64,000 bases of DNA from a virus. Under the pieces are notes generated by a model. The model saw only the letters and a list, made by a program, of their open reading frames with translations, was not told the origin of the DNA and ran no database searches. Of the stretch, positions 20,591 to 46,173 are shown one piece after another. The position numbers and the translations under genes are program-made. Location: the UHGV virus genome UHGV-0174779. One strand, 5' to 3'. How positions within the stretch are numbered: position 1 is the first letter of the stretch; each line of letters starts with the position of its first letter.

Positions 20591-20696
20591 CGAGAGCTCT
20601 TAGTGAGGGTGTATCTTCCCCGCCTTCTAAGCGGTCGTTAAAGAAGTAAATGGAGTATGCAGGTTCGAGTCCTGTCACCCTCGCTAAGAGCTCTTG
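20591..20696 (+). other. Long inverted repeat forming a 21-bp stem that encloses a tRNA-like T-arm (candidate RNase III site or structured RNA)
   Basis: cgagagctcttagtgagggtg (20591-20611) pairs with caccctcgctaagagctcttg (20676-20696) with two G-U pairs; enclosed GGTTCGAGTCC matches the tRNA T-loop consensus. Confidence 0.4.
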
Positions 20697-25239: not shown

Positions 25240-26211
25240 ATGTCAATCTCCACAACGATCGTACCTCTGAATCTTCAACAAGATTTAGGGGAACAGAAGT
25301 TCTTAGGTCGTGGGTGCTTCGGTATTCACAACTACATGCAAGGCCAAGTCATAAATGACATTAATGGCGACTCTGTAATGGAAGAAGGGATTCATAAACG
25401 CTTCAACCGTGATATCAACTTGCAATTGGAGATGTTGAATTACTGGACTCACTCTTTTCATGGTCTCGCTGCATCTGACATTGAAAAGAACTTGGTTGAA
25501 ACAGCAGACATTATGAACTCTATGTCTTGCTATCGTGATGTATTTACGATCACTTCAGCGAATAGTGTTGCTGTCAACCTCCGTGAGCATCCAGCAGATC
25601 AAATCTTCACAGGACTTATGCTCTTCCGTAGTATTCTGGAAGGGCAGTATCGTGGAATGGATTTCCTATCAGAAGGAATTGAAGACAGGGAAGAGTGGCT
25701 GAAGCGTAAACGCATCGGAATTGCTCTAGTGTTAGCTGGGTTAGGTCGAGACTTCTTCGGTGGATGGTCTCAACGAGGAACCTCCAATGGGAGTGGAGAG
25801 AACACATCCATTGTTATTAACAACAATATGTCAGCAGCAGCATTCCTTCCTTTGGTTGTAGACTCTGATGAATACACGAAACAAGTGTGGGTTCAAAACC
25901 CCTTCGGTGTTGGTGACAACAAGGACGGTTATGTTCGCAACCATAACCAAGATGCCTTACGAAGATTTGCTCGTGCTAAAGATCAAGACCCGGACGAGTA
26001 TGAAACAATGTCAGAGTGGTTAAGACTCTGGTCCAGCTGTCATGGTCACAAACGTGAAACAATAGACAATAAGTTGGAAAACATTACAGTACAAAACTTT
26101 ACAGCCCGATTGATTCAGCGTACTGGTCCAACTTCTGGCCTTACGACTGAAGAAGTTGGTAACACAATCTCATCTCTCTTTTCTGAACTAGTGGAGTATT
26201 ACAATGACTAA
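25240..26211 (+). CDS. Hypothetical protein (member of ligase/amidotransferase block)
   Basis: 323 aa, 10-nt gap from upstream gene, overlaps downstream start. Confidence 0.55.
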   Translation: MSISTTIVPLNLQQDLGEQKFLGRGCFGIHNYMQGQVINDINGDSVMEEGIHKRFNRDINLQLEMLNYWTHSFHGLAASDIEKNLVETADIMNSMSCYRDVFTITSANSVAVNLREHPADQIFTGLMLFRSILEGQYRGMDFLSEGIEDREEWLKRKRIGIALVLAGLGRDFFGGWSQRGTSNGSGENTSIVINNNMSAAAFLPLVVDSDEYTKQVWVQNPFGVGDNKDGYVRNHNQDALRRFARAKDQDPDEYETMSEWLRLWSSCHGHKRETIDNKLENITVQNFTARLIQRTGPTSGLTTEEVGNTISSLFSELVEYYND

Positions 26212-27010
26212 GCGCAAATTCTTAATAGGCAGCGACCCTGAGCTCTTCGTTCGTACTAGCAACGGAATCATCACCTCTGTAGCCGGTCTTCTAGGCTGCT
26301 CTAAGGACGATAAGATCGCTCTGGCTAAGGATGTTCGTCTTCAAGAGGACAACGTATTGGCTGAGTTTGATATTGACCCACAGAGCGGTTTTGAAGCGTT
26401 TAATGATAACATGCAACGTGGTATTGATCTCACCAATAGAGTCCTGAACAAACTGGACATGGAAACAGCTCCGGGTGTTAGCTCTCACATCTTCACTGAA
26501 GAGGAGATGAAGACTTTCAATGAATCAGCGTTCATCTTCGGATGTACTCCTGATTTCAACGCTTTCACTGGTCAGAAGAATCCATCCCCGACTTCTCAGA
26601 ACAAGGGGCTTCGTACTGCCGGTGGTCACGTACATCTTGGCGTAGTTGGTTCTTTGGATATCACTCTGCAAACTCAGATGATGCTGGGTGTGCTGTGTGA
26701 CTACTTCCTATCACTCCCAGCAGTTATCATGGATAAAGATACTCGCCGTAAAGAACTTTATGGCAAAGCATCTGCAATCCGTTATAAGGACTACGGTATT
26801 GAATACCGTTCACTGTCCAACTTCTGGATTAACGATCGTGAAAATCGTAAGTTTGTTTACGATCAGGTTGACAAGGTTGTTCAGCAGTGTGATATGTCCA
26901 CTCTGATGGCATTGCACTCTCGTCTTCCGATTGAGAAGCTTCACGAAATTATTAACGGTAATAACGTTAAAGAAGCGGACCAGCAGATCAAACTCCTTCA
27001 GGTAGCATAA
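26204..27010 (+). CDS. Possible carboxylate-amine ligase (amidoligase-like, weak)
   Basis: 268 aa; N-terminal GSDPELFV and central GGHVHLG loosely resemble the G-x-E-x-E and H-x-H elements of the neighbouring amidoligase. Confidence 0.4.
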   Translation: MTKRKFLIGSDPELFVRTSNGIITSVAGLLGCSKDDKIALAKDVRLQEDNVLAEFDIDPQSGFEAFNDNMQRGIDLTNRVLNKLDMETAPGVSSHIFTEEEMKTFNESAFIFGCTPDFNAFTGQKNPSPTSQNKGLRTAGGHVHLGVVGSLDITLQTQMMLGVLCDYFLSLPAVIMDKDTRRKELYGKASAIRYKDYGIEYRSLSNFWINDRENRKFVYDQVDKVVQQCDMSTLMALHSRLPIEKLHEIINGNNVKEADQQIKLLQVA

Positions 27011-27019
27011 GAGGTTATC

Positions 27020-27637
27020 GTGAGCTTAGTAGCTGATTTTTCTCATTACTATAGTGGCACATGGATTGCTAAACGAGCAGGCAACATCAACCTTCCCTGT
27101 TTTGTGATTGGTGTTGAGCAGAGAGGTAACTTCCGCAGCGACGACTTCTCACATGAAGCAGAACAAGCTCTGTACTTTGTTGTAGAGCAATGGTACAAGA
27201 ATGAGAACGGGATTCTCCGAAACACTACGATGAATATTCCAGTGTTTGACCCAACCTTGATTCTTGAATCACCTGATGTTGGCTATCTGTTCCATAATGG
27301 TAACACTGTAAGCTGGACTCATATCAACCCTGTTCGTCAGAGAGCGAAGGGTTTGGTGGGTAACAAGATTCGAAATGCTCCGGGGGTTGGTCGTTCTATC
27401 TCTGGGGAAATGGTTTACAGTCTATTCAATCCTGAATTTGATGGATTGGTTACTCGTTACATTTACATCAACCCTACAGATGGTAAAGTGCATTATAAAG
27501 GTGCACGGGTAGGTCAGGTAGATCTGGAAGCACCTCGTGACTCTTACGGTCAGCAACCGATGCGACTTCTGGAACATTTTCATCACATCTCTGAAAACCT
27601 TAGCAATTATAATATTACGTTGGTGGATTCGTTATGA
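27020..27637 (+). CDS. Hypothetical protein (member of ligase/amidotransferase block)
   Basis: 205 aa, GTG start, stop overlaps next start. Confidence 0.5.
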   Translation: MSLVADFSHYYSGTWIAKRAGNINLPCFVIGVEQRGNFRSDDFSHEAEQALYFVVEQWYKNENGILRNTTMNIPVFDPTLILESPDVGYLFHNGNTVSWTHINPVRQRAKGLVGNKIRNAPGVGRSISGEMVYSLFNPEFDGLVTRYIYINPTDGKVHYKGARVGQVDLEAPRDSYGQQPMRLLEHFHHISENLSNYNITLVDSL

Positions 27638-28737
27638 CAACTGTAGCGCAAACTTTTGGATATCGAGAAGGTCGTTTAACTGAGGCGCATAGTTCAATTG
27701 CACTTCAGTGCGGTGTCGGTATTGAACTTGAACTCGAAGGTTCTGAACATATCGAAGCAGATATGTGGGATTGCACAGAGGATGGTTCCCTGCGTAACGG
27801 TTGTGAAATGGTATGTTCACGACCTTACAACGGACAGGAGTTGTTAGACGCTATCAACAACCTGAGTGAAGCAGTAGCTGAATCGCACGCCGAGGGGACT
27901 TGGCGTTGCTCTACTCACGTTCATATGGATATGAGGGATGCTGATAGTAATATCCTCAAGAAGACCATTCTAGCTTGGACCTTCTATGAAAAGATGTTGT
28001 TCAAGTGTTCAGGCTACCATCGTTACCGTAGCAACTTCTGCCCTGCTTTCGCAGTGGTACAAGCACAGGTAATGAATGCCTCTGACGCATTTAACTACGA
28101 CGATGAAGAGTTCTTCAACCGTCTGGTTCGTTCATGGGATAAATATACATCTCTGAACCTTCTGCCACTTGCCCAATATGGTTCGATCGAGTTCCGTATC
28201 AGTGAGCCTAAGTGGAAACGTGGTCAACTTCTCAATCTGGTTAACCGCTTCTTAATGTTGAAGAAGCTGGCTTTAGATAACGCAGAGATGAGCAATGATC
28301 AGTTTATCGAGCATTTAAATACTGTACGATTTGCCCCAATGCTTCCTTATCTTCCACTAGATTACAGTCTGGATGAATTGGATTTGCATTCAGGGTATTG
28401 TATGGCCCGTGATGTTTTGTACTGCCGTTCTCATGAAGTAGAGCAGTCTGGTCGTATTCGTTTACGTCGAACCAACCCAAGTGGAGAAGTTCTTGTTGAC
28501 TTACGTCTTATCTCAGACTTCTATGGATACCTTGGATATGTCCGAGGGAATGCTAACAACTTGTACCAAGAGATTTTGGTCATGCTTAATACAACAGATC
28601 TATCTACTGTACGATCTGCACCAGAGCAATGTATCCGTGAGATCTTTGACTTACTTCGTGAGTCAGGCCATATTGATAATAATATCACAGGGTACATTCC
28701 AGATCATCTGGAGTATCAGTTAGAGCAAGCGCTGTAA
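27634..28737 (+). CDS. Amidoligase (glutamine-synthetase-like carboxylate-amine ligase family)
   Basis: 367 aa; GVGIELELEG, EDGSL, CSTHVHMD, FRISEPKWKRG motifs typical of phage-type amidoligases. Confidence 0.6.
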   Translation: MTTVAQTFGYREGRLTEAHSSIALQCGVGIELELEGSEHIEADMWDCTEDGSLRNGCEMVCSRPYNGQELLDAINNLSEAVAESHAEGTWRCSTHVHMDMRDADSNILKKTILAWTFYEKMLFKCSGYHRYRSNFCPAFAVVQAQVMNASDAFNYDDEEFFNRLVRSWDKYTSLNLLPLAQYGSIEFRISEPKWKRGQLLNLVNRFLMLKKLALDNAEMSNDQFIEHLNTVRFAPMLPYLPLDYSLDELDLHSGYCMARDVLYCRSHEVEQSGRIRLRRTNPSGEVLVDLRLISDFYGYLGYVRGNANNLYQEILVMLNTTDLSTVRSAPEQCIREIFDLLRESGHIDNNITGYIPDHLEYQLEQAL

Positions 28738-28816
28738 TCAATGGGTGCCTCTGATAAAGGGGCACAATTTAAAGGTTAATTAGATGAAAGGGTTTACCCT
28801 TCAGGTGGATTAGAAA

Positions 28817-30847
28817 ATTTGCGGCATCGTATTAGCTGGCGGTAATCTGTCAAGCACCGATTTAGACGTATTCAACCAACTCTTTTATGCTGGGGTATTC
28901 CGAGGACAACATTCCTCTGGTATCTTTGGTCAGCGTAAAAGTACTAAGGAAGTCTTCACTTATAAGGAAGCTCTTCCCTCTTTCGCATTCATCCTACAAG
29001 ATGAGTATAAGAAGCACACCACTGGTGAAACATCTTATACTGTAGCACCTTCATGGATTGTTGGTCACAGTCGTCATGCAACGAAAGGTGCAGTTAACGC
29101 CAAGAACGCCCATCCTTTCCAACACGGTAACATCACTCTGGTTCATAACGGAACCTTGATGGACCAAGATCTGTTACCTGACAGTAAAAACTTCGAGGTA
29201 GACAGTGAGAACATCTGCTACTCTATTAACACTATTGGTGCAGCAGAGACTATTCAAAAGCTGGATGGTGCTTTCACCTTAATCTGGCATGATGCTTCTG
29301 ATAACCGTCTTCATATTATTCGTAACGAAGAGCGTCCTTTCCATCTCGCACGTTGTAATAGAGATTGGTTTGGTGCTTCTGAAGAAGATATGCTGATGTG
29401 GATTCTGAAGCGTTCTAAGTCTCACAAAAACCGAATTGATGAGCACTTTGAATGTAAAGTTGGTACAGAATATATCTTTGATATGTCAAACAACAGCATG
29501 ACTCTGGTTGAAGAGGTCGCCCATGAGCTTCCGGTTTTTACGGTAGTCAATCGTTGGGCCAGTTACTACTCGAACAACTACAGCCAAAGCAATTATCAAA
29601 GCTCCTCAAAAAGCAGTACAAGCAATCCTTACGACACGAAGCCGGGAGTGACAGCGGCAGACGTTCGTCGAAGAAACGCAGTGGTAAGTCAAAACAAAAT
29701 CGCAAGCGATCGAAACATTGATATTCGCCGCGACATGACTGTGGAAATCACACCACATGAATTTGTTCCCTATGCAACTGCTGGTGCTGTTCCTTCTCGT
29801 GGTAAGATGATTGGTTATATCTACGATGAGAAATCTCAAGAGTACATTGAAGGTGATGTTCATAACGTAGACATTAAGGCTTATCAGGATGCCCTGAAAG
29901 ACCCTAAAATTGTTTACCGTGGGACAGTATCCTGCATCTCCGAAGTCGATGCTATGGTTCGTTTAGTAATCACAGCAGGTCGTTTTGTTGACCCATCTCT
30001 GGAGAAAAAGGAGCCTGAGTCAACTACTGCTGACTTCGATGATGATATCCCTTTTGACATGAATGATAGTTTCGTCAACAAGAATGGCGTTACTATCACT
30101 CGTAAATTCTGGGAAGCACACTCTCATGGTGATTGTGGTGGTTGTGACAAGCACATTGATTGGAAGGATGCACCTAAAGCAGTCTTCGCATATCAGTGCT
30201 ACTGGCATCCCGAGTGTCTGGAAAGGTTGACTAAACCTAAAGAGGAAGAAGAGGAGGAGACTCCTATCGGTGTTTGTGAAATCTGTGGTGAGGTTAAAAC
30301 AGAGAATGAGTTCGATGAAGAACTTAGCCGCCTCCGTGGTGAAGATATCTGTAAAGACTGTGCTGTAGAAGTAAAGAAGAAAGTGTCTAATGCTACGATC
30401 AAAGATGGTTATGTCTGGATTAAAGCAACAGATACAACAAACACCCGTCGTCCTGAAATTGCTGTACGTGTAACTGAGGAAATGATTGGTCGTATGACCG
30501 TATTACCCTCCTCAGCGAAACAAACAGGTATCACTCTGGAAGATGTTGTTGATGCTTATGTTGAGAAACGTGGCAACAGTATTTTTGCAATCTCGACTAA
30601 GCCAAAAAAGGAGGAACCTGCTGAGAAAGCAGGTGTGTTTCCTGAATCACGAACAGCTCTCCGCAAAACTGTTGTCAGCTTCGACGGAAATCGAAGCACT
30701 GACTTCACCAAAGCCATGTGGTCAACCCTCGGATACTGCTCAGAGTGTTTTAAGCAGATTCCGTGGCGCGATGCTGAAAGTTGTACGCTTGGTTCTATGA
30801 ATCAAGTTTATTGTAATTCTCCTAAATGTTCATTGAATAGAGGTTAA
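28817..30847 (+). CDS. Class-II glutamine amidotransferase (Ntn-hydrolase) fused to Cys-cluster C-terminal domain; probable AUU start
   Basis: ORF track starts at 29156, but the same frame upstream encodes (I)CGIVLAGG...FRGQHSSGIFG...NAHPF...LVHNGTL, the N-terminal Cys and HPF/HNG signature of class-II GATases. No ATG/GTG/TTG precedes the Cys; AGGTGGA lies 8 nt before ATT 28817. C-terminal part has three Cys4-like clusters. Confidence 0.55.
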   Translation: MCGIVLAGGNLSSTDLDVFNQLFYAGVFRGQHSSGIFGQRKSTKEVFTYKEALPSFAFILQDEYKKHTTGETSYTVAPSWIVGHSRHATKGAVNAKNAHPFQHGNITLVHNGTLMDQDLLPDSKNFEVDSENICYSINTIGAAETIQKLDGAFTLIWHDASDNRLHIIRNEERPFHLARCNRDWFGASEEDMLMWILKRSKSHKNRIDEHFECKVGTEYIFDMSNNSMTLVEEVAHELPVFTVVNRWASYYSNNYSQSNYQSSSKSSTSNPYDTKPGVTAADVRRRNAVVSQNKIASDRNIDIRRDMTVEITPHEFVPYATAGAVPSRGKMIGYIYDEKSQEYIEGDVHNVDIKAYQDALKDPKIVYRGTVSCISEVDAMVRLVITAGRFVDPSLEKKEPESTTADFDDDIPFDMNDSFVNKNGVTITRKFWEAHSHGDCGGCDKHIDWKDAPKAVFAYQCYWHPECLERLTKPKEEEEEETPIGVCEICGEVKTENEFDEELSRLRGEDICKDCAVEVKKKVSNATIKDGYVWIKATDTTNTRRPEIAVRVTEEMIGRMTVLPSSAKQTGITLEDVVDAYVEKRGNSIFAISTKPKKEEPAEKAGVFPESRTALRKTVVSFDGNRSTDFTKAMWSTLGYCSECFKQIPWRDAESCTLGSMNQVYCNSPKCSLNRG

Positions 30848-30852
30848 ATCAG

Positions 30853-31086
30853 ATGGAAATTCGTAAGATGATGTTGGATAATGTTGTAACTACTCGACGT
30901 ATCCCGATGACGAGCACAGGATGTGACAACCTTCGTGCAATCCAGAAGTGGATGCAAGCTGGTATTGGTCAAGTACTTGAGACACAGGTTGAGGTTCCGT
31001 TCCCAACGGTGATCAATAACGTACTTGCTGATTATGTAAAAATCAAAGGCATTAAGGTAGAACCTCATGTCAAATCTGGTTCCTAA
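30853..31086 (+). CDS. Hypothetical protein
   Basis: 77 aa ORF inside the enzyme block. Confidence 0.4.
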   Translation: MEIRKMMLDNVVTTRRIPMTSTGCDNLRAIQKWMQAGIGQVLETQVEVPFPTVINNVLADYVKIKGIKVEPHVKSGS

Positions 31087-31291
31087 GAAACCGAAGATTA
31101 CTCTCCTACAGTATTACATAGGAGTTCATATCGAATTAGTAACGGAGCAGCGAAAGCTGTATCCGTTCGCTTTCGGTCTGATTGATGCACCATCCGATGA
31201 AGTAGAGAACGATGCGTTCAATGACTACTTCGAAATTGAAGCTCAGATTCAAAAAACTCGTAACGAAATTCTTAAACTTAAAGGTATCTAA
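31067..31291 (+). CDS. Hypothetical protein
   Basis: 74 aa ORF overlapping upstream gene end. Confidence 0.4.
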   Translation: MSNLVPKKPKITLLQYYIGVHIELVTEQRKLYPFAFGLIDAPSDEVENDAFNDYFEIEAQIQKTRNEILKLKGI

Positions 31292-31293
31292 CA

Positions 31294-32490
31294 ATGACTA
31301 CTCGTATCCGTGTTCTCCCTTATGGCCCTTCTGATTCAGTTCGTGAACTTACTTCTGCTATTAATGCTAAGATTCAGGAACTTCGACTGAATGCTAACGT
31401 AATGTCTCTGGTATCAGAAAACTCTCGTTATCGTTCTCGAGCCGGTGATATTGTTGTAAACTATGGCAACCGTCGTTATGATGCTTCTTTCTTTGGTGGT
31501 GCAACCGTACTGAACCCTGTTGAAGCCCTGAACCGAGCAGCTAATAAAGTTGCAGCATTTAACGCATTACGGTTGGCTGGAGTTAAGACTGTTGAATATA
31601 CCGTTGATCGTGAAGTAGCTCAGAGCTGGAACCAAAACGAAATCGTTTATGAGCGTGCAACCTTAACTGGACATTCTGGTGAAGGCATCACCGTACGTCT
31701 TCCGGGAGAAGGTACTGCAAGTGCTCCTCTGTATACGAAAGGTATTCAAGGTCCGCGTCGTGAATGGCGTGTTCATGTGTTCGAAGGTGTTATCACTTAC
31801 GTTCAGAAGAAGATTCGTCGTAATGGATATCGTGAACTGGAAAGCTATCGTGAAAATATTCGCAACCATCACACTGGCTGGGTTTACTCTAACTCTTTCA
31901 CTGAAGCTCCTCCTGATCAAGTTCTGATTCAAGCCCACAAAGCTGTGTCTGCTCTGGGTTTAAACTTCGGCGCTGTTGACCTGATTAGTAAAGGCTCTAA
32001 CGCTTGGGTTCTGGAAGTAAACACTGCTCCGGGTCTGACTGGTACAACTCTGGAAACTTACACTCACAACATTGTTGAGTTTGTTAAGAGCTTCTCTGGT
32101 GTTGAGCCTGACTACCGCGTTGCTTACGAACTGCCTGTTGAAGAGTCGGAAGTTGAGTTTGCTGACTCAGCGGATGATGAGAACTTTGCATTGACAGCTG
32201 AGCCAGTTGCTGAAGAGTCATCTGAACCTGTTCCTGAAACAATGCAAGTGGAAGAACAAGGGTTAGAGATCAACCCAATCACCCGTCGTACCCTGCGTCG
32301 TGGTTATTATATCGCGAACATCAAGCATCCTGAAAACGGCTCAACTGTAGCAAGTAATGTAATTGTTTTCTTCTGCGGTCGTAACTTCTACCGCTCTGGT
32401 TGGAACGCACCAATTAGTGATCGTCAGCTTGGTCGTGTGTTGCAGATTAATAGCCTTACCCTGAATGATGGCACTGTTGTAAACTACTAA
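31294..32490 (+). CDS. ATP-grasp family ligase (RimK-like)
   Basis: 398 aa; EWRVHVFEG, GWVYSNS, LGLNFGAVDLISKGSNAWVLEVNTAPGL are characteristic ATP-grasp C-terminal motifs. Confidence 0.75.
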   Translation: MTTRIRVLPYGPSDSVRELTSAINAKIQELRLNANVMSLVSENSRYRSRAGDIVVNYGNRRYDASFFGGATVLNPVEALNRAANKVAAFNALRLAGVKTVEYTVDREVAQSWNQNEIVYERATLTGHSGEGITVRLPGEGTASAPLYTKGIQGPRREWRVHVFEGVITYVQKKIRRNGYRELESYRENIRNHHTGWVYSNSFTEAPPDQVLIQAHKAVSALGLNFGAVDLISKGSNAWVLEVNTAPGLTGTTLETYTHNIVEFVKSFSGVEPDYRVAYELPVEESEVEFADSADDENFALTAEPVAEESSEPVPETMQVEEQGLEINPITRRTLRRGYYIANIKHPENGSTVASNVIVFFCGRNFYRSGWNAPISDRQLGRVLQINSLTLNDGTVVNY

Positions 32491-32496
32491 GGATAT

Positions 32497-32745
32497 ATGG
32501 ATATGTTTTCATTGGAAGATCTAGTACAAAATGGAATGATGGAACAAAAAGAGCCTCTGATTGTAGGCTCTCGTAAAGAGTTGCGTAAGTTGTGTGAGGA
32601 ATGGGGTATTACTAATCAGCGAATGATTGGTAATCAATTCTCTGCAATTGTAACTTTCCTGAAACGTGGTGATAAGTATTCTATGGAATGTGTAGAACGT
32701 ATCATCGCTGAAGCACAACAAGACAAAGGAGTGACCTATCTGTGA
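32497..32745 (+). CDS. Hypothetical protein
   Basis: 82 aa ORF. Confidence 0.4.
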   Translation: MDMFSLEDLVQNGMMEQKEPLIVGSRKELRKLCEEWGITNQRMIGNQFSAIVTFLKRGDKYSMECVERIIAEAQQDKGVTYL

Positions 32746-32927
32746 ATAAGTATAAAGTTCTGTTTAAAGATACCAATGCCGCTGGTGAAATGCGAGCTAT
32801 GGACCTAGATGCTGATATGTTTAACTTCTCTGATGGCAAAGTGACCTTCTTTCAGGGAAGTGAAGCTGTTGCAATGTTTGAGAGTGCAGCAATCTGTGGT
32901 GTAATCAAAATCTTTATTACAGAGTAA
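32742..32927 (+). CDS. Hypothetical protein
   Basis: 61 aa ORF, GTG start overlapping upstream stop. Confidence 0.35.
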   Translation: MNKYKVLFKDTNAAGEMRAMDLDADMFNFSDGKVTFFQGSEAVAMFESAAICGVIKIFITE

Positions 32928-32996
32928 TCTGCTTTAGCCTCTTCGAAAGAGGGGGCTAGTTCGGATAAACTAAACAAACCAACAAAGGTATAGATA

Positions 32997-33416
32997 ATGT
33001 CAGAAGTAATTTACGTAGCAACTTATGGAAGTTTGAGAAGCGGTCAAGCTAACTATTTAATTAATGACCGAGCTGGTGCTAAATCTATTGGTGAAGGTTG
33101 GACTGAAGATAACTTCGATCTGTTCCGTTACGGTGGTTCCTACTTCCCGAGCATCTCTCTCGCACACAGCAATAACAATAAGCCTGTTCGTGTAGAAGTG
33201 TTTGCTACTGACAAAGCAGGTCTGGAAGGTCCATATGACCGTCTGGAAGGCTACAACAAACATAGCCCTGAAGATAGCTTCTATCAGCGTACCCAGATTG
33301 CTGTTAAGATGGACTCAGGTGAAACTGTTATCGCTTGGATTTATCATATCGACGAAGAACAAGATGTTCTGGTTGAGTCAGGAGACTGGTCAGAGTATCT
33401 AAAAAACGAGGGTTAA
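32997..33416 (+). CDS. Gamma-glutamyl cyclotransferase-like (AIG2/GGCT fold) protein
   Basis: 139 aa; N-terminal YVATYGSLRSGQANY and downstream acidic residues match the GGCT-like signature. Confidence 0.55.
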   Translation: MSEVIYVATYGSLRSGQANYLINDRAGAKSIGEGWTEDNFDLFRYGGSYFPSISLAHSNNNKPVRVEVFATDKAGLEGPYDRLEGYNKHSPEDSFYQRTQIAVKMDSGETVIAWIYHIDEEQDVLVESGDWSEYLKNEG

Positions 33417-33882: not shown

Positions 33883-35428
33883 ATGTCAAAGATCATTTTG
33901 GGAGACACAGGCTGTAAGGAATGTATCTCTCATGGTCGTGATAAAACCCACAACCACATGATTCTCTTCCGTAACGAAGAGACCGGTGAGGAGTGGGGAA
34001 GTTGTAACCGTTGTGGGAATTACGAAGTGTTCGAAAAGGGCACTACACCTACTCCAAACGAGAAGAAAGAGTTATCCCCTGAAGAGTTGAGAGAAGTCTT
34101 AGATGATTGCTTAGAGCTTCCTCAGGGTGAACTTACTCGACGTTTAATCCCTAAAGCCGTATCAGAGCGTTTTGAGTGTCGCATTGGCCTCAGCCAAACT
34201 GATGGTCAGACACCAGACAGTTACTTCTTTCCTCGTGAACGTGATGGAAACATCGTTGGTTACGAGGTTAAACTGCTAGATAGTAAGAAGTTTTATTACG
34301 TTGGCAGTGTGAAAGAAGCAGATTTATTTGGTATGGCACAGGCTCAGCGTGGTGATGTGTACAACAAGAAGCTATTCATTTTTGAAGACCCGCTATCTTG
34401 TATGTCTGGTTTCCATGTCCTTACAGCTTTTACAAATGCAACAAACATTAAGCCAGCATGTGTTTCTTTACCGTTCGGTGCAGGTTCAATCTCTTCTGTG
34501 TTGTCTCGTAATCGAGACTTCGTAAATGGTTTTGAGGAGGTTGTGCTCTGCATGGACAACGATGATGCAGGTGAGATAGCTTTAACAAAAGGTCGTTCTT
34601 TATTCCCTCATGTCAAGTTTGCTCGTATTCCTAAAGGAACTTTCCCATACAACGGTGTGGAGAAAGAGATTAAGGATGCGAATGACATGCTTCTGTCTGG
34701 TCGTGGTCAAGAGTTATTCAACATTCTCAAGTATTCAGCAAAGCGGGAATCTCCTGCTGGTGCTGTAACAATCTTTGATTGTCTTGATGATGCTCTGAAG
34801 AAAGCAGAATGGGGTATCCCCTATCCGTGGAAGACTCTGAATGAAATGACCTTCGGTATTCGATGGGGAGAGGTGGTAGCAATTGGTGGTGGAGTAGGGA
34901 GTGGTAAAACACTCATTGCTCACGAGCTGGTTGCTCATCTGTGCTTAGAGCATGGTTTTAATGGAGGTGGCTTCTTCTTGGAAGAGAAGGTAGGCATGTC
35001 TGTTAAGAACATTGCTGGTAAGTCAGCATCTATTCCTTTCCACCGACCAGATGTTGAATATGATGAGGAGGATTTGCGTAATGAAGCACTTCGTTATGCA
35101 GACAAATTCTTCTTGTATGACAACTTCGGACAGAACGAATGGGAAGACATTAAACAGTGTATCCGTTTCTGGGTAGTTGAAAACCAGTGTAAGTTTATCA
35201 TCCTTGATAACATTACCGCTCTGGTATCTCATTTAACACCTTCAGAGATTAACACTGAAATCAGTAAGATTGCTTCCGAGCTTGCTGGTATGTGTAAAGA
35301 ATTAGACTTTACCGCTTTCGTTCTATCTCACCTCAATGCTCCGGCAGGTGGTGCTCCTCACGAAGAAGGTGGACAGGTACGTGAAGTGCAGTTCACTGGT
35401 TCTCGTTCCCTTATGCGTAAACAAACCT
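33883..35428 (+). CDS. DNA primase-helicase (T7 gp4-like), 5' exon or N-terminal part
   Basis: N-terminal zinc ribbon CKEC...CNRC, helicase Walker A GGGVGSGKT, Walker B FIILDNITAL; reading frame breaks after ...EVQFTGSRSLMRKQT within helicase motif H4. Confidence 0.8.
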
Positions 35429-36047
35429 GCGCATGTAAAACCTATTGAACTCAGGGAAAGCTAAGTCGAAAGATATGCCAATCCTGAGCTAAGCTAGACA
35501 GTCTTCCAAGAGCAAGGAGGCTTTATGGAAGAGAAACAAATAGAAGGTGCATCTAATTATTGGGTGCGGCCTGATGGTACGATTTATAATAGTAAAACAG
35601 GCAATGTTATCTTAGGGGCCAGACATGGCAACGGATATTTAACTGTTTACTTAAGAATGGATACGGGACAAAGAAAGAAATTCTACATGCACCGACTAGT
35701 AGCTATTGCCTTTGTTCCTAACCCTCACAATTATCCATTTATTGATCACTTGGACCATACAAGAGATAATAACGTGGCAACTAATTTGGAGTGGGTAACC
35801 AACGCTGAGAATGTTCAGAGAGGTTACAATTTCTTTAATTATAAACGGAAGACTGTTTAGAAAGTGCAGAGACTAGGGTGGTCATAAGACCGAAGTACAG
35901 CCAAGTGGTGTCATTAACATTGACTTAAATGGAAGCAGTAGGCACACTTTTGTGTGGTGAGATAGTCCGATCTTGCAGGAAACTGTAAGCAGCATGTAGT
36001 GGTGCGGGGTATGAGTAGCGATCATATCTGAACTTTTGTGGTGTCAG
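35429..36047 (+). mobile_element. Probable group I intron (or HNH-mediated gene split) interrupting the primase-helicase gene
   Basis: About 620-nt insert between helicase segments; contains a free-standing HNH ORF with its own AAGGAGG RBS. Exon boundaries inferred by alignment logic, uncertain by a few nt. Confidence 0.55.
35525..35860 (+). CDS. HNH homing endonuclease (intron-encoded)
   Basis: 111 aa; HRLVAIAFVPNPHNYPFIDHLDHTRDNNVATNLEWVTNAEN HNH-type motif. Confidence 0.7.
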   Translation: MEEKQIEGASNYWVRPDGTIYNSKTGNVILGARHGNGYLTVYLRMDTGQRKKFYMHRLVAIAFVPNPHNYPFIDHLDHTRDNNVATNLEWVTNAENVQRGYNFFNYKRKTV

Positions 36048-36293
36048 TGTATCATTGGCTTTGAGCGTGACAAGCAAGCTGATGGCTTAGCTAAGAACCT
36101 CTCAGTCATTCGATTACTGAAAGAACGTAACTACGGTCAGACAGGTGTCTGTTATACTAAGTATATCAGTGAGACCGGCAGACTTGTAGAAAGGGAAGAC
36201 TTTGAAGTTGACGAAGATAATCCATTCGTTTTAACTAACGGAGAGGATGCAGCTTCTCTCGTCAGTCAAGCAGATGGAGCTTCACCGTGGTAA
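36048..36293 (+). CDS. DNA primase-helicase, 3' exon or C-terminal part
   Basis: Translation [33 protein letters not shown] continues helicase motif H4 and C-terminal acidic tail in T7 gp4 order. Confidence 0.7.
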
Positions 36294-36844
36294 AGAAAAA
36301 GAAGAAAGTGTTTGCATTCGATATCGAGAGTAATGCACTATACGATGATATAACCAAAGTGTGGTGTATTTATATTTTCGATGTTGAAACTGATGAAAGG
36401 TGGGGCTATCGGCCTCACCAAATTGAAGATGGGATTCGTAAGCTTACAGAAGCTGATGTGATCTTAGGTCATAACATTATTGACTTCGACCTTTGTGCTC
36501 TGAAGAAAATGTATCCCAATCTGATCGACTATCGTTTTAACGTCTTCGACACTTTATGTCTTAGTCGATATCTTAAACCTGACCGTATTGGTGACAGTCC
36601 TGAGTATCCGAAAGGCGACCCTAGACATGGCCCAAGAGGTCATGGCTTGAAGCAATGGGGTGAGTTCTTAGGGGAACTTAAAGGTGATTACGGTGAGCAA
36701 GAGGAAGCATGGGATGCTTTCACTGAGGATATGTTTACTTATTGTGAACAGGACGTTAACTTAACTGTTAAGGTTTATAAATACTTGTGTGAACTCACAG
36801 GATTTGACCCTTACGACCCACCTTCATTATATTGGAAAATGTAA
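36287..36844 (+). CDS. DNA polymerase, 3'-5' exonuclease subunit (T7 gp5 N-terminal domain as a separate gene)
   Basis: FDIESNAL (Exo I), [13 protein letters not shown] (Exo II), FTYCEQDV (Exo III); ORF stops where the T7 polymerase domain would begin. Alternative GTG start at 36308. Confidence 0.8.
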
Positions 36845-36845
36845 A

Positions 36846-38132
36846 ATGATTGTTATCCCGATTAACCGAATTGCAGATAAGGTTGCTCAACAACCTGATA
36901 TCACTGTTGGTCGTCACTTCATTGAACAGTTGATTAACAACAACTTGATTCCAGACTGTATTTGTCCCATCATCACTGGTGGGGCTGTTCGTGATGCTGT
37001 TCTTAATAACAGAGCACCTCATGACATTGATATCTTTATTGTCAGAGGACAGGCCCCAAGAACTCGAAATACCTTTATCCACCATGACCAGTGGCAAGAT
37101 CTCGGACGAGAGGTTGAAAGTAATGTGAAGGAATGGCTAGAATCACAAGATATTGAATATGCATCCCTTCTTGCTGAATCTACAGATGAGCCGTATACTG
37201 GGACTTCTCAACTAACATTCACTGATATTATTGAGTTTCAGTGGAATGGGGTTCGTATCCAATTCATGTTTAATTATCCTACTTCTATTGAAGAGGTATT
37301 GGATAATTTTCCTATGATGTGCCGTGGTGCGATGACTCTTGACAAGCTGTTCATGACCCCCCAGGGATATTTGGCTATGACCTCTCCTTGTCCAGTGGTT
37401 GTCTCTAGTCGTGAAATCAAGTATGTTCACAAGAAGTGGCCTAATTCACAGGTATTAAGATTCTCCGATCCATCTGTTGCATATCAATATATGGCACAAA
37501 CTCGATACCTTCCTACACCTCAACCAGTTAGTCATCTGGTCAACGAACGAGGTCAGGTTGCTCTTATTGAGGATACAACAAGTGCTCATTATTGTGTTAA
37601 TCGTGACATGAGTCGATTCTTTGGGATCCCTTATGAAGAGATTCAGTTAATGTCAAGCATTCATAGCTCTAGCCAGATTCATGCGTATTGGTCTGAAGGG
37701 TTGACAAATTTAACAACTAACACGGGTGGTGATCTGCTTGGTCGAGAAGAAGACTCTAACCGACACAATGCAATTGAAGGGGTTTTTGTATCCCCTACAA
37801 TGCGTCGAGCACAAGAGTCACGAAGAGTAAGCCCTACTCGTAGAATATCTTTTGAAGATCTTGGTATTACAAGCGATTCTATGGAGCAATGGATGGCTAG
37901 ACCTTCTCGTGGTCGATCAAATGGCTTTACTGTCGGCGCACGTCAGTTCTCTGGTCAGGGTTTTGCTGTTGGTGATATCAACGCACCTGTTAGGGCTGTG
38001 TGGACTGATGAAGATATGGTAGAGAGTCGCGCTGATCAATTTGTTTCAAATAATCCTGAAGTATTAGAACCTCAAACCCGTACAGTTCGGTTTGCCGATG
38101 AATCGGGTCGCGGTTTCTCTTTTGAAATGTGA
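36846..38132 (+). CDS. Nucleotidyltransferase of the CCA-adding / poly(A)-polymerase head type
   Basis: ORF 36789..38132; ATG 36846 directly after the exonuclease gene stop. Motif ITGGAVRDAVLNNRAPHDIDIFIV matches the GGxVRD...DxD signature of class-II tRNA nucleotidyltransferases; C-terminal 300 aa unrecognised. Confidence 0.55.
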   Translation: MIVIPINRIADKVAQQPDITVGRHFIEQLINNNLIPDCICPIITGGAVRDAVLNNRAPHDIDIFIVRGQAPRTRNTFIHHDQWQDLGREVESNVKEWLESQDIEYASLLAESTDEPYTGTSQLTFTDIIEFQWNGVRIQFMFNYPTSIEEVLDNFPMMCRGAMTLDKLFMTPQGYLAMTSPCPVVVSSREIKYVHKKWPNSQVLRFSDPSVAYQYMAQTRYLPTPQPVSHLVNERGQVALIEDTTSAHYCVNRDMSRFFGIPYEEIQLMSSIHSSSQIHAYWSEGLTNLTTNTGGDLLGREEDSNRHNAIEGVFVSPTMRRAQESRRVSPTRRISFEDLGITSDSMEQWMARPSRGRSNGFTVGARQFSGQGFAVGDINAPVRAVWTDEDMVESRADQFVSNNPEVLEPQTRTVRFADESGRGFSFEM

Positions 38133-38153: not shown

Positions 38154-38708
38154 ATGAGTTTACTAGGAAGCCCAGAGTTACATAAATTAATTGACGATGG
38201 TGTTATTGATGCACCACACTCAGCTGTTAATTCCTCCAGCATTGATGTTCGTATTGGAGATCGCGTTCTGATGGAAGGTGCAGCTAATGGGGTTGTTGAT
38301 ATCTCTGCTAAAGAGTCCCCTAACTTCAATGAGGTTATGATTCCAGAGGAGGGGTTGGTGATCAAACCGGGTGAGTGTTTCTTAGCTCATACAGTGGAGA
38401 CATTCAACCTTCCAGACAACATTAGCTGTGACTTCATGCTACGGTCTACTGTCGGTCGTTGCTTCTTAGAGCACATGCACGCTGGTCATGCTGATGGCGG
38501 TTGGCATGGCAGTCAGTTAACTATGGAATTCAAGAATGTCCTACAGCACCACTCTTTGCTAATTAAACCGGGGATGCGTATAGGTCAAATGGAGTTCTTT
38601 AAACATTCCTCCTCGGAAGAGGATAGCTACGCAACGAAAGGTTCCTATAATAATCAACAAGGGCCAACAAAAGCTTTTGGTGGAACAAATCATGCTGATA
38701 TGGTATGA
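38154..38708 (+). CDS. dCTP deaminase / dUTPase-family protein
   Basis: 184 aa; SSIDVRIGDRV, GxxxxGHADGGWHG, LIKPGMRIGQMEF, YNNQQG in Dcd-like order. Confidence 0.65.
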   Translation: MSLLGSPELHKLIDDGVIDAPHSAVNSSSIDVRIGDRVLMEGAANGVVDISAKESPNFNEVMIPEEGLVIKPGECFLAHTVETFNLPDNISCDFMLRSTVGRCFLEHMHAGHADGGWHGSQLTMEFKNVLQHHSLLIKPGMRIGQMEFFKHSSSEEDSYATKGSYNNQQGPTKAFGGTNHADMV

Positions 38709-40151: not shown

Positions 40152-40430
40152 ATGTCTAAAGTAATTAAGTTTTATAGTGATCAGTGTGCTCCATGTAAAG
40201 CAATGGCTCCTACCTTTGAGAAGGTTGTTAAGGAGTTTGATGTAGAAGTGGAAGAGATTAACATCCTTGAAGGTGATGGTCGTGAACAAGCTGTTAAGTA
40301 TGGTGTACGAAGTATCCCTGCTTTCGTTGTGCCTGACCGTAACAGTGGTGCACACTACAGCCTCTCTGGTATGCAGACTGAAGCAAACCTGAAAGCATTT
40401 TTGGATACAGCTCTGAATGGTAATCGATGA
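40152..40430 (+). CDS. Thioredoxin-like protein
   Basis: 92 aa; CAPC active-site motif in thioredoxin-fold context (KFYSDQCAPCKAMAP...IPAFVV). Confidence 0.7.
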   Translation: MSKVIKFYSDQCAPCKAMAPTFEKVVKEFDVEVEEINILEGDGREQAVKYGVRSIPAFVVPDRNSGAHYSLSGMQTEANLKAFLDTALNGNR

Positions 40431-40887
40431 TTTAGAGTATATCCCTGAAACTGGAGAGTTCTTTCGAAAAGGTAAGAAATTAGGAGGAACTCGAAGTAAG
40501 TACATAACCCTGCGGTTTAAAGGGAAAGTACACAAAGCTCATAAAGTGGCATGGTTCTTTTACTATGGAGAATGGCCTTCTTCTCAGATAGACCATATCG
40601 ATAGAAATAAGAAGAACAACTCAATACAGAACTTGAGGTTGGTGGACACCTCGACAAACTGCCACAACCAGTTCGGGGCTAGAGTATCAAACAAGGAAAC
40701 AGGGCTTCAAGGTGTTAAGGTTGTCAAATACAGATCAGGCACTATCAGATATAGGGCTGTTATTTGTATTGATAAAGTAGATATACATCTAGGTATGTAT
40801 GGAACTGCCGAAGAAGCTCATCAAGTTTACATGAATCGAAAAAAGGAACTTTTAATTGAACGAACAACTACAAGCAACACTGATTGA
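40417..40887 (+). CDS. HNH homing endonuclease
   Basis: 156 aa; HKVAWFFYYGEWPSSQIDHIDRNKKNNSIQNLRLVDTSTNCHNQ. Confidence 0.7.
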   Translation: MVIDDLEYIPETGEFFRKGKKLGGTRSKYITLRFKGKVHKAHKVAWFFYYGEWPSSQIDHIDRNKKNNSIQNLRLVDTSTNCHNQFGARVSNKETGLQGVKVVKYRSGTIRYRAVICIDKVDIHLGMYGTAEEAHQVYMNRKKELLIERTTTSNTD

Positions 40888-41512
40888 AGCAATGGGAAGT
40901 GACAAATCTGTAGTCAATGCAGCTAGAGTATCTTTCGGTGTTGTTCGAGAAGGTGACTTAAATGAGAGAGACACAAAACTTATCAACTTCCTTGCACGGG
41001 AAAAACACTGTACTCCATTCCGACACCCGCAAGTCAGTTTCCGATGCAAAGCACCTATCGCAATTGCGAGACAGTTGGGCAAGCATCAGGTTGGATTCTC
41101 GTGGAACGAAATGTCCCGGCGGTATAAAGATGGAGCAGTTGAAGTCTTCATCCCTAAAGAGATTTTTGCGAGACCTTCGGACCTCCATGCAGGTTCAGGG
41201 ATTCAACTCCTCAACGGAGAACGAGCTGAAGCATTAATGCTGATTAACGATGCATATGAAGCTTCTCTAGCAGCATATGACAAGTTGATTGAATTCGTTG
41301 CACCAGAGCAAGCCCGATTTGTTCTTCCTCAGGGGATGATCACTGAGTGGGTGTGGACTGGTTCTTTATATGGCTGGTTTGAGTTGTGTCGTCAGCGACT
41401 CTCCTCTCATGCTCAGTATGAAGTTCGAGTGTTTGCCCAATCTCTAGATGAAGAAATGGCTAAGCTCTACCCAGTCTCATGGGCAGCTTTGAAGAAAACT
41501 TTGGAGAATTAA
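40856..41512 (+). CDS. thyX: Flavin-dependent thymidylate synthase ThyX-like protein
   Basis: VVNAARVSF, LINFLAREKHCTPFRHPQVSF and KHQVGFSWNEMSRRY align with ThyX core motifs, but the RHR signature reads KHQ. Alternative ATG start at 40892. Confidence 0.6.
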   Translation: MNEQLQATLIEAMGSDKSVVNAARVSFGVVREGDLNERDTKLINFLAREKHCTPFRHPQVSFRCKAPIAIARQLGKHQVGFSWNEMSRRYKDGAVEVFIPKEIFARPSDLHAGSGIQLLNGERAEALMLINDAYEASLAAYDKLIEFVAPEQARFVLPQGMITEWVWTGSLYGWFELCRQRLSSHAQYEVRVFAQSLDEEMAKLYPVSWAALKKTLEN

Positions 41513-44328: not shown

Positions 44329-46173
44329 GTGAGCAACCCGGACGCTCTTCCATTTTTGACAGAGATGACTGTCGCTGATATAATCTCTAAGCAAGCAAAG
44401 CACGGAGTGAGTTTCAACCGAAGAAATGCTCGGTGGTATGTTCACCTCCTTAAAGAGATTATTGTTAATATTGATAAAGAACTAATTCCTCTCTTACCTA
44501 AGATGAGATTAGACGGCTCTACTTATATGAAGCCGTTTAAGAAGTCTGGAGCTTTGCAGAAGTGGCCTCAAGCCTATTGTGATAGGGTTGGGCTGAAGAG
44601 GGAGGACATTGGTGGAGCTTTCACCTGTGTCGAATACGTAGACTTTGACCCATCGAAGGATGCACGAGTTAAAGAAGCTCTTATGGATGAGGGCTTTCTT
44701 CCTCCAGAGTTTAACGTATCTAAAAAGCCTTGGAATACTTTCGAAATTAAGAAAGATATGAGAAAGTATGGAACATACCAAGCATGGTATACTGCTTGGA
44801 TGCGAGGCAATGCTAAGCAAAAGCAGACAGCCGAGATGGTTGACGCTGATATAAAGAAATTCTTAGAAAAGCATTTTAGATTTAAGACTAAGAATTACAT
44901 GAAGGCTTACGTATTTGGTTTGGGATTAAACCCGAATCGCCGTAATCCTGTAACGTTTGATGAGATTAAGAAAGCACTAGCCACATCAAACAAGTGGCCT
45001 ACAGCTCCTACAAACCTCGAGGAGACTCTTGAAGAAGGGCTAGGGGGTGAGCTAGGGAGTGTTGGGAGTTTGCTTAAGAGACGCGTTGTAGCGGCTCACA
45101 GGCTAGGTCTTATCAGTGGACTTATAGCAAAGGAACGCGAAGATGGTAAACTTTCAGCAGAAGCTAACAGCTGCGCTACGCCGACTTTTCGATTCAAACA
45201 TCGTATCGTGGTTAATATTCCCTCCCGTGGTCTGTTTGGTCACGAGTGTCGCAGTTTGTTTGAGTCTGACTATAACTCAGACAGTGATCACTCTCGTCCT
45301 TTCGTTATTACTAACGTTGTTCCTGATGGTTGTTATATACGAAAAGGTACTAACGTAATTTACGAGAAAGGTAAGCCGGGGAAGAAAGACAAACCTGTAG
45401 GTGCTTACAAATATTACATACCCGCTGGTAAAGAAGTATTCTTAGGGTATGATGGTTCTGGGTTAGAGTTGCGTATGTTAGTGCACTATCTTGTGAAAGA
45501 GTGCCTTGACATGATGGAAGAAGCCAAAGCAGAGAACGATAAAATTAAGTATCTTAGGGCTGAGAAAGGCTTAGAGGCTGCTTATACTTATCGAGAGGTT
45601 CTTCTCTCAGGTGATATCCATTCCCACAATCAGAAACTAGCTGGCCTACCAACTAGAGATAATGCAAAAACTTTTATCTATGGATTTCTATATGGGGCAG
45701 GCGCAGCTAAGATTGGAGAGATTGTTGGAGGAGGTGCTCAAGAGGGTGAAATTCTCAGAGAACGTTTCTTAGCAGAATGCCCTTGTATCCCAATTGTCTT
45801 GGAGAGAGTACAAGCTCGTGCAGAAACAGGTACTCTTGAAGGTGTGGATGGTCGTAAGTTGACCATGAGACGGGATGCTACTGGTAAGGTTATGGTGCAT
45901 AAAGCCCTGAATACCCTACTCCAGAGTGCAGGTGCCATTGTCATGAAATACTCCATTTTGTTCACAAATAAATGGGTAGAGCAGCAGGGTATTAGAGGAA
46001 ATAAGGTGATTGACTATCATGATGAAGCACAGTGGTCTGTCAACCGTAACGACATTGATAAAATGAAAGAGATAGCTGAGACTTGTGTTAAAAAAGCAGG
46101 AGAATATCTAAACATGCACTGTGAATTAGCATCTGATTGTCAGATTGGATTAAATTGGATGCACACCCATTGA
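44329..46173 (+). CDS. DNA polymerase, polymerase subunit (family A, T7 gp5-like thumb/palm/fingers)
   Basis: 614 aa; motif A YDGSGLELRML, motif B RDNAKTFIYGFLYGAG, motif C DYHDEAQ; begins where T7 gp5 resumes after the exonuclease domain. Confidence 0.85.
   Translation: MSNPDALPFLTEMTVADIISKQAKHGVSFNRRNARWYVHLLKEIIVNIDKELIPLLPKMRLDGSTYMKPFKKSGALQKWPQAYCDRVGLKREDIGGAFTCVEYVDFDPSKDARVKEALMDEGFLPPEFNVSKKPWNTFEIKKDMRKYGTYQAWYTAWMRGNAKQKQTAEMVDADIKKFLEKHFRFKTKNYMKAYVFGLGLNPNRRNPVTFDEIKKALATSNKWPTAPTNLEETLEEGLGGELGSVGSLLKRRVVAAHRLGLISGLIAKEREDGKLSAEANSCATPTFRFKHRIVVNIPSRGLFGHECRSLFESDYNSDSDHSRPFVITNVVPDGCYIRKGTNVIYEKGKPGKKDKPVGAYKYYIPAGKEVFLGYDGSGLELRMLVHYLVKECLDMMEEAKAENDKIKYLRAEKGLEAAYTYREVLLSGDIHSHNQKLAGLPTRDNAKTFIYGFLYGAGAAKIGEIVGGGAQEGEILRERFLAECPCIPIVLERVQARAETGTLEGVDGRKLTMRRDATGKVMVHKALNTLLQSAGAIVMKYSILFTNKWVEQQGIRGNKVIDYHDEAQWSVNRNDIDKMKEIAETCVKKAGEYLNMHCELASDCQIGLNWMHTH

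Follow-up and report, generated by a model that had tools for sequence, protein, structure and literature searches.

The gene at positions 36846-38132 (plus strand) of the viral genome UHGV-0174779, which was analysed as one stretch of 64,000 nucleotides (hereafter the window), encodes a stand-alone nucleotidyltransferase (NTase) whose core, residues ~17-200, appears to derive from the head domain and the first neck helix of class II CCA-adding enzymes and poly(A) polymerases (PAPs). The parts on which the specificity for tRNA and for C and A depends, namely the RRD of motif B, the templating residues of motif D, the body and the tail, have been lost. The family of this protein is small and confined to phages, and it probably has a specific kinship with Gad2, an anti-defence protein of Bacillus phages, and with the NTases of ~200 residues found in phiKMV-like podophages (phrog_1614), with which it would form a group of minimal, phage-only NTases. 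Judging from its sequence, the protein is very probably active. An earlier note on this DNA had proposed a CCA-adding or PAP-type NTase that might repair tRNA; the assignment to the class II type holds, while a role in CCA addition or tRNA repair is unlikely.

The window belongs to a Kuravirus (subfamily Gordonclarkvirinae), an E. coli podophage similar to phiEco32, SU10 and ES17; its top DNA match is phage SR02 (93%), and a protein identical to the window NTase is present on metagenomic contigs of ~69 kb. The coding sequence (36846-38129, 428 residues, with the stop codon at 38130-38132) is contained in a mechanically called open reading frame (ORF) that spans 36789-38132. Translation starts at the ATG at 36846, as all 47 aligned relatives begin with M-I-x-I-P and this codon lies 1 nucleotide past the TAA of the upstream gene; the interval originally described is thus a genuine gene, a single ORF of 428 residues with a start shared by its relatives. 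PHROG 12715 ('nucleotidyltransferase') matches the protein over its full length (E 7e-230), and we take phrog_12715 as the primary family. The orthologues in ES17, phiEco32 and SU10 are likewise annotated as 'nucleotidyltransferase' in RefSeq, and under this name the SU10 protein was among those detected by mass spectrometry in an unpurified preparation (PMC4281155). The observation of the gene is therefore not new: it is already annotated in RefSeq and is discussed in two papers (PMC4281155, PMC11990801). Literature searches found no functional study of the family.

The relation to class II enzymes is most evident in motif A (residues 43-66, ITGGAVRDAVLNNRAPHDIDIFIV; 36972-37043), which contains the GG, the RD and the DxD metal-binding pair: GGAVRD...DID at residues 45-62 aligns to the GGxVRD...DxD of human, E. 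coli and phage class II enzymes. When the alignment of the family was compared by hhalign to a class II alignment made of E. coli Cca, PcnB and six phage CCA enzymes, the two matched with E 3.7e-6 over 65 columns (residues 42-112), against 0.98 for the reversed control. Family alignments were required for this result, as hhalign against single sequences (Cca, PcnB, LKD16 ORF16, one Gad2) recovered little beyond motif A. The Pfam PolyA_pol head profile (PF01743) gives E 2.3e-4 and 21.9 bits, below the gathering score of 23, covering positions 3-85 of the 126 in the profile; among 26 family members, 15 match PF01743 at E <= 1, and the best of these matches is the sub-threshold one of the window protein itself. 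In a profile search of PDB sequences only residues 43-94 align (E ~0.75), and phmmer likewise reaches motif A only (E ~0.7). It can be seen that the motif recognized in the earlier note is indeed a class II head signature, and that the profile searches suggested there as a check place the protein among nucleotidyltransferase families and not in an unrelated one.

Structure prediction, also proposed in the earlier note, points the same way. An AlphaFold2 model calculated with a diverse alignment that included distant relatives is confident over residues 1-300, with a predicted local distance difference test score (pLDDT) of 86.5 and a predicted template modelling score of 0.84, whereas an alignment of Kuravirus sequences only gave a pLDDT of 33.6. 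The predicted fold is that of the head domain of class II enzymes, and the closest solved structures are all tRNA nucleotidyltransferases or PAP, with structure-match scores of 10.5 for E. coli PAP I, 9.8 for the B. stearothermophilus CCA enzyme, 9.6 for the A. aeolicus A-adding enzyme (143 residues, 3.5 Å), 9.3 for the T. maritima CCA enzyme, 8.9 for the human CCA enzyme and 8.0 for the Arabidopsis CCA enzyme; 143-164 residues align to the class II structures. An orphan bacterial protein of 191 residues described as a 'CCA-adding enzyme head domain' protein, S. pneumoniae NP_344798.1 (PDB 2la3), has a structure-match score lower than those of the full class II enzymes.

Conservation in the family is concentrated in the putative active site. 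In an alignment of 47 sequences with identities as low as ~22%, G45, G46, R49, D50, D60, D62, F64, Y117, I128, Q139, P156, Y193 and K197 do not vary, and an acidic residue (D or E) occupies positions 127 and 190 throughout. Position 127 (D in 33 sequences, E in 14) is a candidate for the third carboxylate; it lies, together with I128, Q139 and M141, in a beta-hairpin (residues 125-143; 37218-37274) formed in the model by strands 125-133 and 136-143. The ratio of nonsynonymous to synonymous substitution rates (dN/dS) relative to ES17 is 0.11-0.18 in the core, and this value and the invariant active site support catalytic competence.

Beyond motif A the class II elements are degenerate. The motif B residues R90, R91, D92 and N96 (RRD..N) are invariant in the class II alignment, but the corresponding region of the window protein (residues 153-162; 37302-37331) reads LDNFPMMCRG, in which only F/M155 and P156 are conserved. 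Similarly, D131, P132 and R134 of motif D (D-P-x-R) are invariant in the class II alignment, while a transitive hhalign alignment by way of Gad2 gives C-P183-V-V-V in the window protein, with the proline kept and the E-D and R gone. As read from this alignment, the segment at residues 183-199 (PVVVSSREIKYVHKKWP; 37392-37442) retains the helix scaffold of motif D and has lost the templating E-D and R. R189 is present in 37 of the 47 sequences. We also considered [D/E]190-x-x-Y193 as the equivalent of EDxxR, and dropped it since the transitive alignment puts the proline of EDP at P183. No body or tail domain was found by Pfam, phmmer, NCBIfam, the PDB profile search or structure comparison, and scans of the window protein with NCBIfam and PADLOC gave no match. 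The class II head is real, and no other part of a CCA enzyme is present. Compared with the class II tRNA nucleotidyltransferases and PAP I (PF01743; PDB 1miv, 3aql, 4wby, 1ou5), the window protein lacks the RRD, the E-D..R, the body and the tail, and it has instead an acidic core, an extra N-terminal strand and helix, and a C-terminal tail that is probably disordered. We are confident that it should not be counted among the bona fide CCA-adding enzymes, and the label 'CCA-adding enzyme' is misleading for the family and should not be propagated.

The earlier note had also described the C-terminal 300 residues as unlike a standard body or tail domain. This is correct inasmuch as no such domain is present; however, the conserved folded core, which combines the class II-type head with a reduced helical neck, spans residues 1-290 (36846-37715), with conservation in the 47 sequences fading near residue 290, and the divergent tail is limited to residues ~301-428 (37746-38129). 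The tail is hydrophilic (grand average of hydropathy −0.75), with a basic first half and an acidic end that bears a conserved ...RTVRFADExGRGxSF motif; aromatic residues near the C-terminus are found in many family members. It evolves with a dN/dS of 0.52 relative to ES17 and carries in-frame indels (multiples of three) among Kuravirus orthologues; in the other two genera it defies alignment, and it is missing from relatives of 276-340 residues. A disordered tail of this kind would act in docking, and C-terminal motifs of the beta-clamp or T7 type were considered as candidates.

By tblastn the gene is found in 98 phage records, all of Escherichia/Shigella Gordonclarkvirinae, and it is present in all 98 Gordonclarkvirinae records; identities are 75-89% in Kuravirus, 38% in Nieuwekanaalvirus (residues 1-261 only) and 33% in Suseptimavirus (residues 1-264 only). 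Word-indexed homologue searches gave matches confined to Gordonclarkvirinae proteins, and tblastn with two distant relatives as queries found no cultured phage beyond this subfamily. An exhaustive HMMER search over 1.84 billion cluster representatives recovered 31 with E <= 1e-3, many of just 276-340 residues, and none of these 31 is a canonical CCA enzyme or PAP.

A precomputed Pfam annotation of the window protein reads 'PF26128:Gad2 (weak)', and most Kuravirus orthologues also carry a PF26128 entry. Gad2 is a 400-residue protein of phage SPbetaL7 directed against the Gabija defence system: a phage in which it is knocked out becomes sensitive to Gabija, the defence is blocked in trans by a Brevibacillus homologue (that of SPbetaL7 is itself toxic), and an NTase domain is predicted in it by AlphaFold (bioRxiv 10.1101/2023.05.01.538930). 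We compared the NTase family by hhalign to an alignment of nine Gad2 homologues from Supplementary Table 10 of that work, and obtained E 3.1e-5 (probability 73%, 136 columns), against E 0.024 for the reversed control. The match spans residues 22-197 of the window protein and 15-161 of Gad2, with shared motifs GG, DxD-F, [IL]QxM (the IQxM of the window protein aligns to LQMI of Gad2), F[PD]xxCxG and R...Y. Gad2 provides a bridge to the degenerate motifs: in motif B, FPMMCRG of the window protein corresponds to FDFTxCMG of Gad2 and to RRDFTINA of class II enzymes, and in motif D, P183-VVVSS-R189-EIK-Y193 corresponds to FPIVSLLRVQKY and to EDPLRxLRxxRF. Like the window family, Gad2 (PF26128; Yirmiya et al., SPbeta-like phages) is phage-only, has ~400 residues and carries an N-terminal minimal NTase; it differs in the absence of the RD of GGxxRD and in a folded C-terminal half that is not alignable to the window protein. 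The genomic settings differ as well, as Gad2 occupies a variable anti-defence site in temperate Bacillus phages, whereas the window NTase belongs to the fixed core of virulent E. coli podophages and lies in their replication module. The likeness is known from sequence comparison, while anti-Gabija activity has been shown for Gad2; Gabija is not mentioned in the paper on the BASEL phage collection (PMC11990801), which includes members of the subfamily.

Both the Gad2 homologues and the window protein match phrog_1614 at ~1e-8 (window protein, E 7.7e-8, residues 42-157); two distant relatives (L003 and L004) match it too. The phrog_1614 NTases of Autographiviridae and other podophages, such as LKD16 ORF16 (199 residues, GGAARD...DID, encoded between helicase and ligase), have the same stand-alone class II-like head and the same location in a T7-like replication module; they differ in being about half the size of the window protein and tail-less, with a match that covers only the residues just given. 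Structure matches in BFVD are mostly 'poly A polymerase head domain' proteins of 170-250 residues from Autographiviridae.

The position of the gene is equally characteristic. In the window the order is primase/helicase (33883-36293, intron-split), PolA exonuclease, NTase, dCTP deaminase, ferritin/Dps-like protein, thioredoxin, HNH endonuclease, ThyX, PhoH and PolA polymerase domain (44329-46173), and thus the NTase gene is located within a T7-like replication module. Its upstream neighbour (36287-36844, plus strand) is a stand-alone PolA-type 3'-5' exonuclease (Pfam DNA_pol_A_exo1, E 4e-8; PHROG 403/38876), which bears out the adjacency to a polymerase exonuclease gene claimed from the sequence, and whose stop codon ends 1 nucleotide before the ATG of the NTase; its downstream neighbour (38154-38708, plus strand) is a dCTP deaminase (Pfam DCD, E 1.3e-31). 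The order helicase-exonuclease-NTase is kept in all three genera of Gordonclarkvirinae and is the same in ES17, EP335, EK010 and six metagenomic loci whose NTases are 22-31% identical, with a gap of 1-18 nucleotides between exonuclease and NTase in the related loci. The dCTP deaminase comes next after the NTase in 9 of 10 related loci, the exception being L009, where a truncated ORF of no assigned identity closes the locus. Between these genes, no signal for a promoter or a terminator rises above chance. The NTase would share a transcript with the T7-like replication genes (primase/helicase, PolA exonuclease, dCTP deaminase), and its translation is probably coupled to theirs.

Taken together, these observations suggest that the NTase would act during replication, moving a nucleoside or deoxynucleoside monophosphate from the corresponding triphosphate to a 3'-OH acceptor, of which the most plausible would be a nucleic-acid end at the fork or at the termini of the linear genome. 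Such a transfer would serve to hinder a host nuclease or a Gabija-type defence that senses DNA ends, and not to rebuild the CCA of tRNA. We hold the complete reading, an enzyme of the replication phase that interferes with the host or its defences by way of a 3'-OH acceptor, only tentatively. Nucleotide addition to DNA ends during replication, which was one of the possibilities raised in the earlier note, fits both the gene context and the kinship with Gad2. Several points weigh against this reading. The relation to Gad2 appears remote, as judged by the hhalign probability and the weak Pfam match, and concerns the NTase half only, the C-terminal half of Gad2 (residues ~230-400) having no counterpart in the window protein since the alignment stops at Gad2 161/window 197. 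According to a 2026 review, the mechanism of Gad2 is still unknown, and Gabija acts where DNA ends are not subject to RecBCD activity (PMC12904381), so that the analogy points to a purpose but says nothing of the chemistry. Anti-defence genes tend to be accessory and mobile, yet this one belongs to the fixed core of the genome; an acidic folded core (isoelectric point 5.1) is not what is usually seen in an enzyme that binds nucleic acid unaided; and because the whole region is collinear in the lineage, the adjacency to the exonuclease may reflect an inherited gene order and not a functional coupling. A more specific and rather unlikely version holds that NTases of the Gad2 type are built-in parts of T7-type replication in phiEco32-like and phiKMV-like podophages, where the 3' ends of the linear genome or of replication intermediates would receive untemplated nucleotides from them and so be hidden from Gabija, Shedu and RecBCD-linked defences; if true, this would also expose the mechanism of Gad2.

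Other roles can be weighed against the same evidence. Repair of tRNA 3' ends, that is the rebuilding of host or phage tRNA ends damaged by nucleases or the maturation of a phage tRNA-like RNA without encoded CCA, agrees with the identity of the closest solved structures and with the presence of full-length CCA enzymes in many large phages, and the window contains a tRNA-Arg-like element that ends in GCTA, not CCA. Nonetheless, the protein lacks the RRD of motif B and the E-D..R of motif D as well as a body or tail to grip the tRNA elbow, and the HMMER relatives include no canonical CCA enzyme; the NTase is also found in phages with a tRNA-Arg that encodes its CCA, as in phiEco32, the host possesses its own Cca, and the gene sits among DNA replication genes and not among RNA repair genes. 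On these grounds and in view of the acidic core, we consider this role decidedly improbable. Tailing of host or phage transcripts in the manner of a PAP, or of the short RNA primers of the T7-like primase, with an effect on their stability or use, is also improbable, if slightly less so: the structure score of PAP barely exceeds those of the CCA enzymes, the neck, body and RNA-binding domains of PAP are missing, the acidic core is no better suited to this task, and with the loss of the ribose-recognition motif B a specificity for the nucleoside triphosphates that build RNA is not to be assumed.

A different proposal places the NTase with the dCTP deaminase in a pathway of DNA modification or of the nucleotide pool. 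It goes back to the speculation of the BASEL authors, who noted the strong restriction-modification resistance of Gordonclarkvirinae and pointed to this pair of genes (PMC11990801). The conserved order of the two genes is in keeping with it, and an acidic core would suit a small-molecule substrate. Restriction sites are informative in this respect: in the whole window CCWGG (7 observed vs 95 expected), GATC (132 vs 284), PstI (0 vs 21) and EcoRI (7 vs 24) sites are depleted, but those of EcoRV (31), EcoKI (9) and EcoP1 (94) are plentiful and not depleted, and hence site avoidance alone does not explain the resistance. On the other hand, we know of no DNA hypermodification pathway that employs a class II-type NTase, no chemical step links the NTase to a base, and dCTP deaminase together with ThyX (40856-41512) constitutes an ordinary dTTP supply for an AT-richer genome; furthermore, no modification is reported for these phages (PMC11990801). 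We therefore regard this pathway as improbable. An inactive or structural remnant, for example a replisome scaffold, would account for the decay of several class II motifs and for the long disordered tail, yet the invariance of the DxD pair, of GG/RD and of the acidic character of position 127 across deep divergence, and the strong purifying selection on the core, make it very improbable indeed.

The tRNA-like element with a T arm, at 20605-20683 (its stem extends over ~20594-20694), exists as described in the earlier note: it scores 30.2 bits with the Rfam tRNA model, against a gathering score of 29, and has a canonical T arm, while ARAGORN finds no tRNA at 20605-20683. Kuraviruses normally have one tRNA-Arg(TCT) (PMC9965538), and the tRNA-Arg of phiEco32, which encodes its own CCA, is at the syntenic position. 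The variant shared by the window and Bas93 lacks the D arm and has an anticodon loop CUUCUAA, a variable region of ~20 nucleotides and an extended acceptor stem, in which the two differ by a single compensatory change of G:C to A:T; no CCA is encoded, the element of the window ending in GCTA instead. The element is a variant of the ordinary tRNA-Arg(UCU) gene of the lineage, and it may be a functional tRNA, a processing signal or a gene in decay. By megablast the variant is restricted to a small-genome clade. The further suggestion that it could be a substrate of the NTase was rejected on phyletic grounds: the NTase is universal in the subfamily and extends to distant metagenomic relatives, the variant element is limited to one small clade, and the two are consequently not coupled.

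The family is of value beyond this genome. It is a fixed core gene of an entire lineage of virulent E. coli phages that is used in therapy studies and is strikingly resistant to restriction, and its remote kinship with Gad2 gives it additional weight. With a Gad2-like enzyme in genetically tractable E. coli phages (BASEL Bas86-94), both the anti-Gabija mechanism of Gad2 and the role of the many small NTases in T7-like modules would become testable.

Some other features of the region deserve mention. Two separate genes ~7.5 kb apart encode the family A DNA polymerase, one a 3'-5' exonuclease of 185 residues (36287-36844) and the other a polymerase of 614 residues (44329-46173); the NTase, dCTP deaminase, ferritin/Dps-like, thioredoxin, ThyX and PhoH genes are among those in between. 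The phage thioredoxin gene (40152-40430) is followed by an overlapping gene for an HNH endonuclease (40417-40887), and the pair lies directly ahead of ThyX. T7 polymerase takes host thioredoxin as its processivity factor, and by analogy the phage copy may serve the polymerase in this capacity here. The primase/helicase gene contains a 620-bp insertion (35419-36038) that is not present in ES17, with exon 1 running up to 35418 and exon 2 resuming at 36039 in a different frame. The insertion holds an HNH endonuclease ORF (35525-35860) and scores 32.2 bits with the Rfam group I intron model RF00028 (E 2.6e-6, local search), under the gathering score of 50. Immediately upstream of the replication genes there is a cluster of peptide/amide-bond enzymes (26204-33416), consisting of a phiEco32-type COOH-NH2 ligase (26204-27010), an Amidoligase_2 protein (27634-28737), a glutamine amidotransferase (29156-30847), an ATP-grasp-like protein (31294-32490) and a GGACT protein (32997-33416), which is kept in two distant relatives (L004 and L005).

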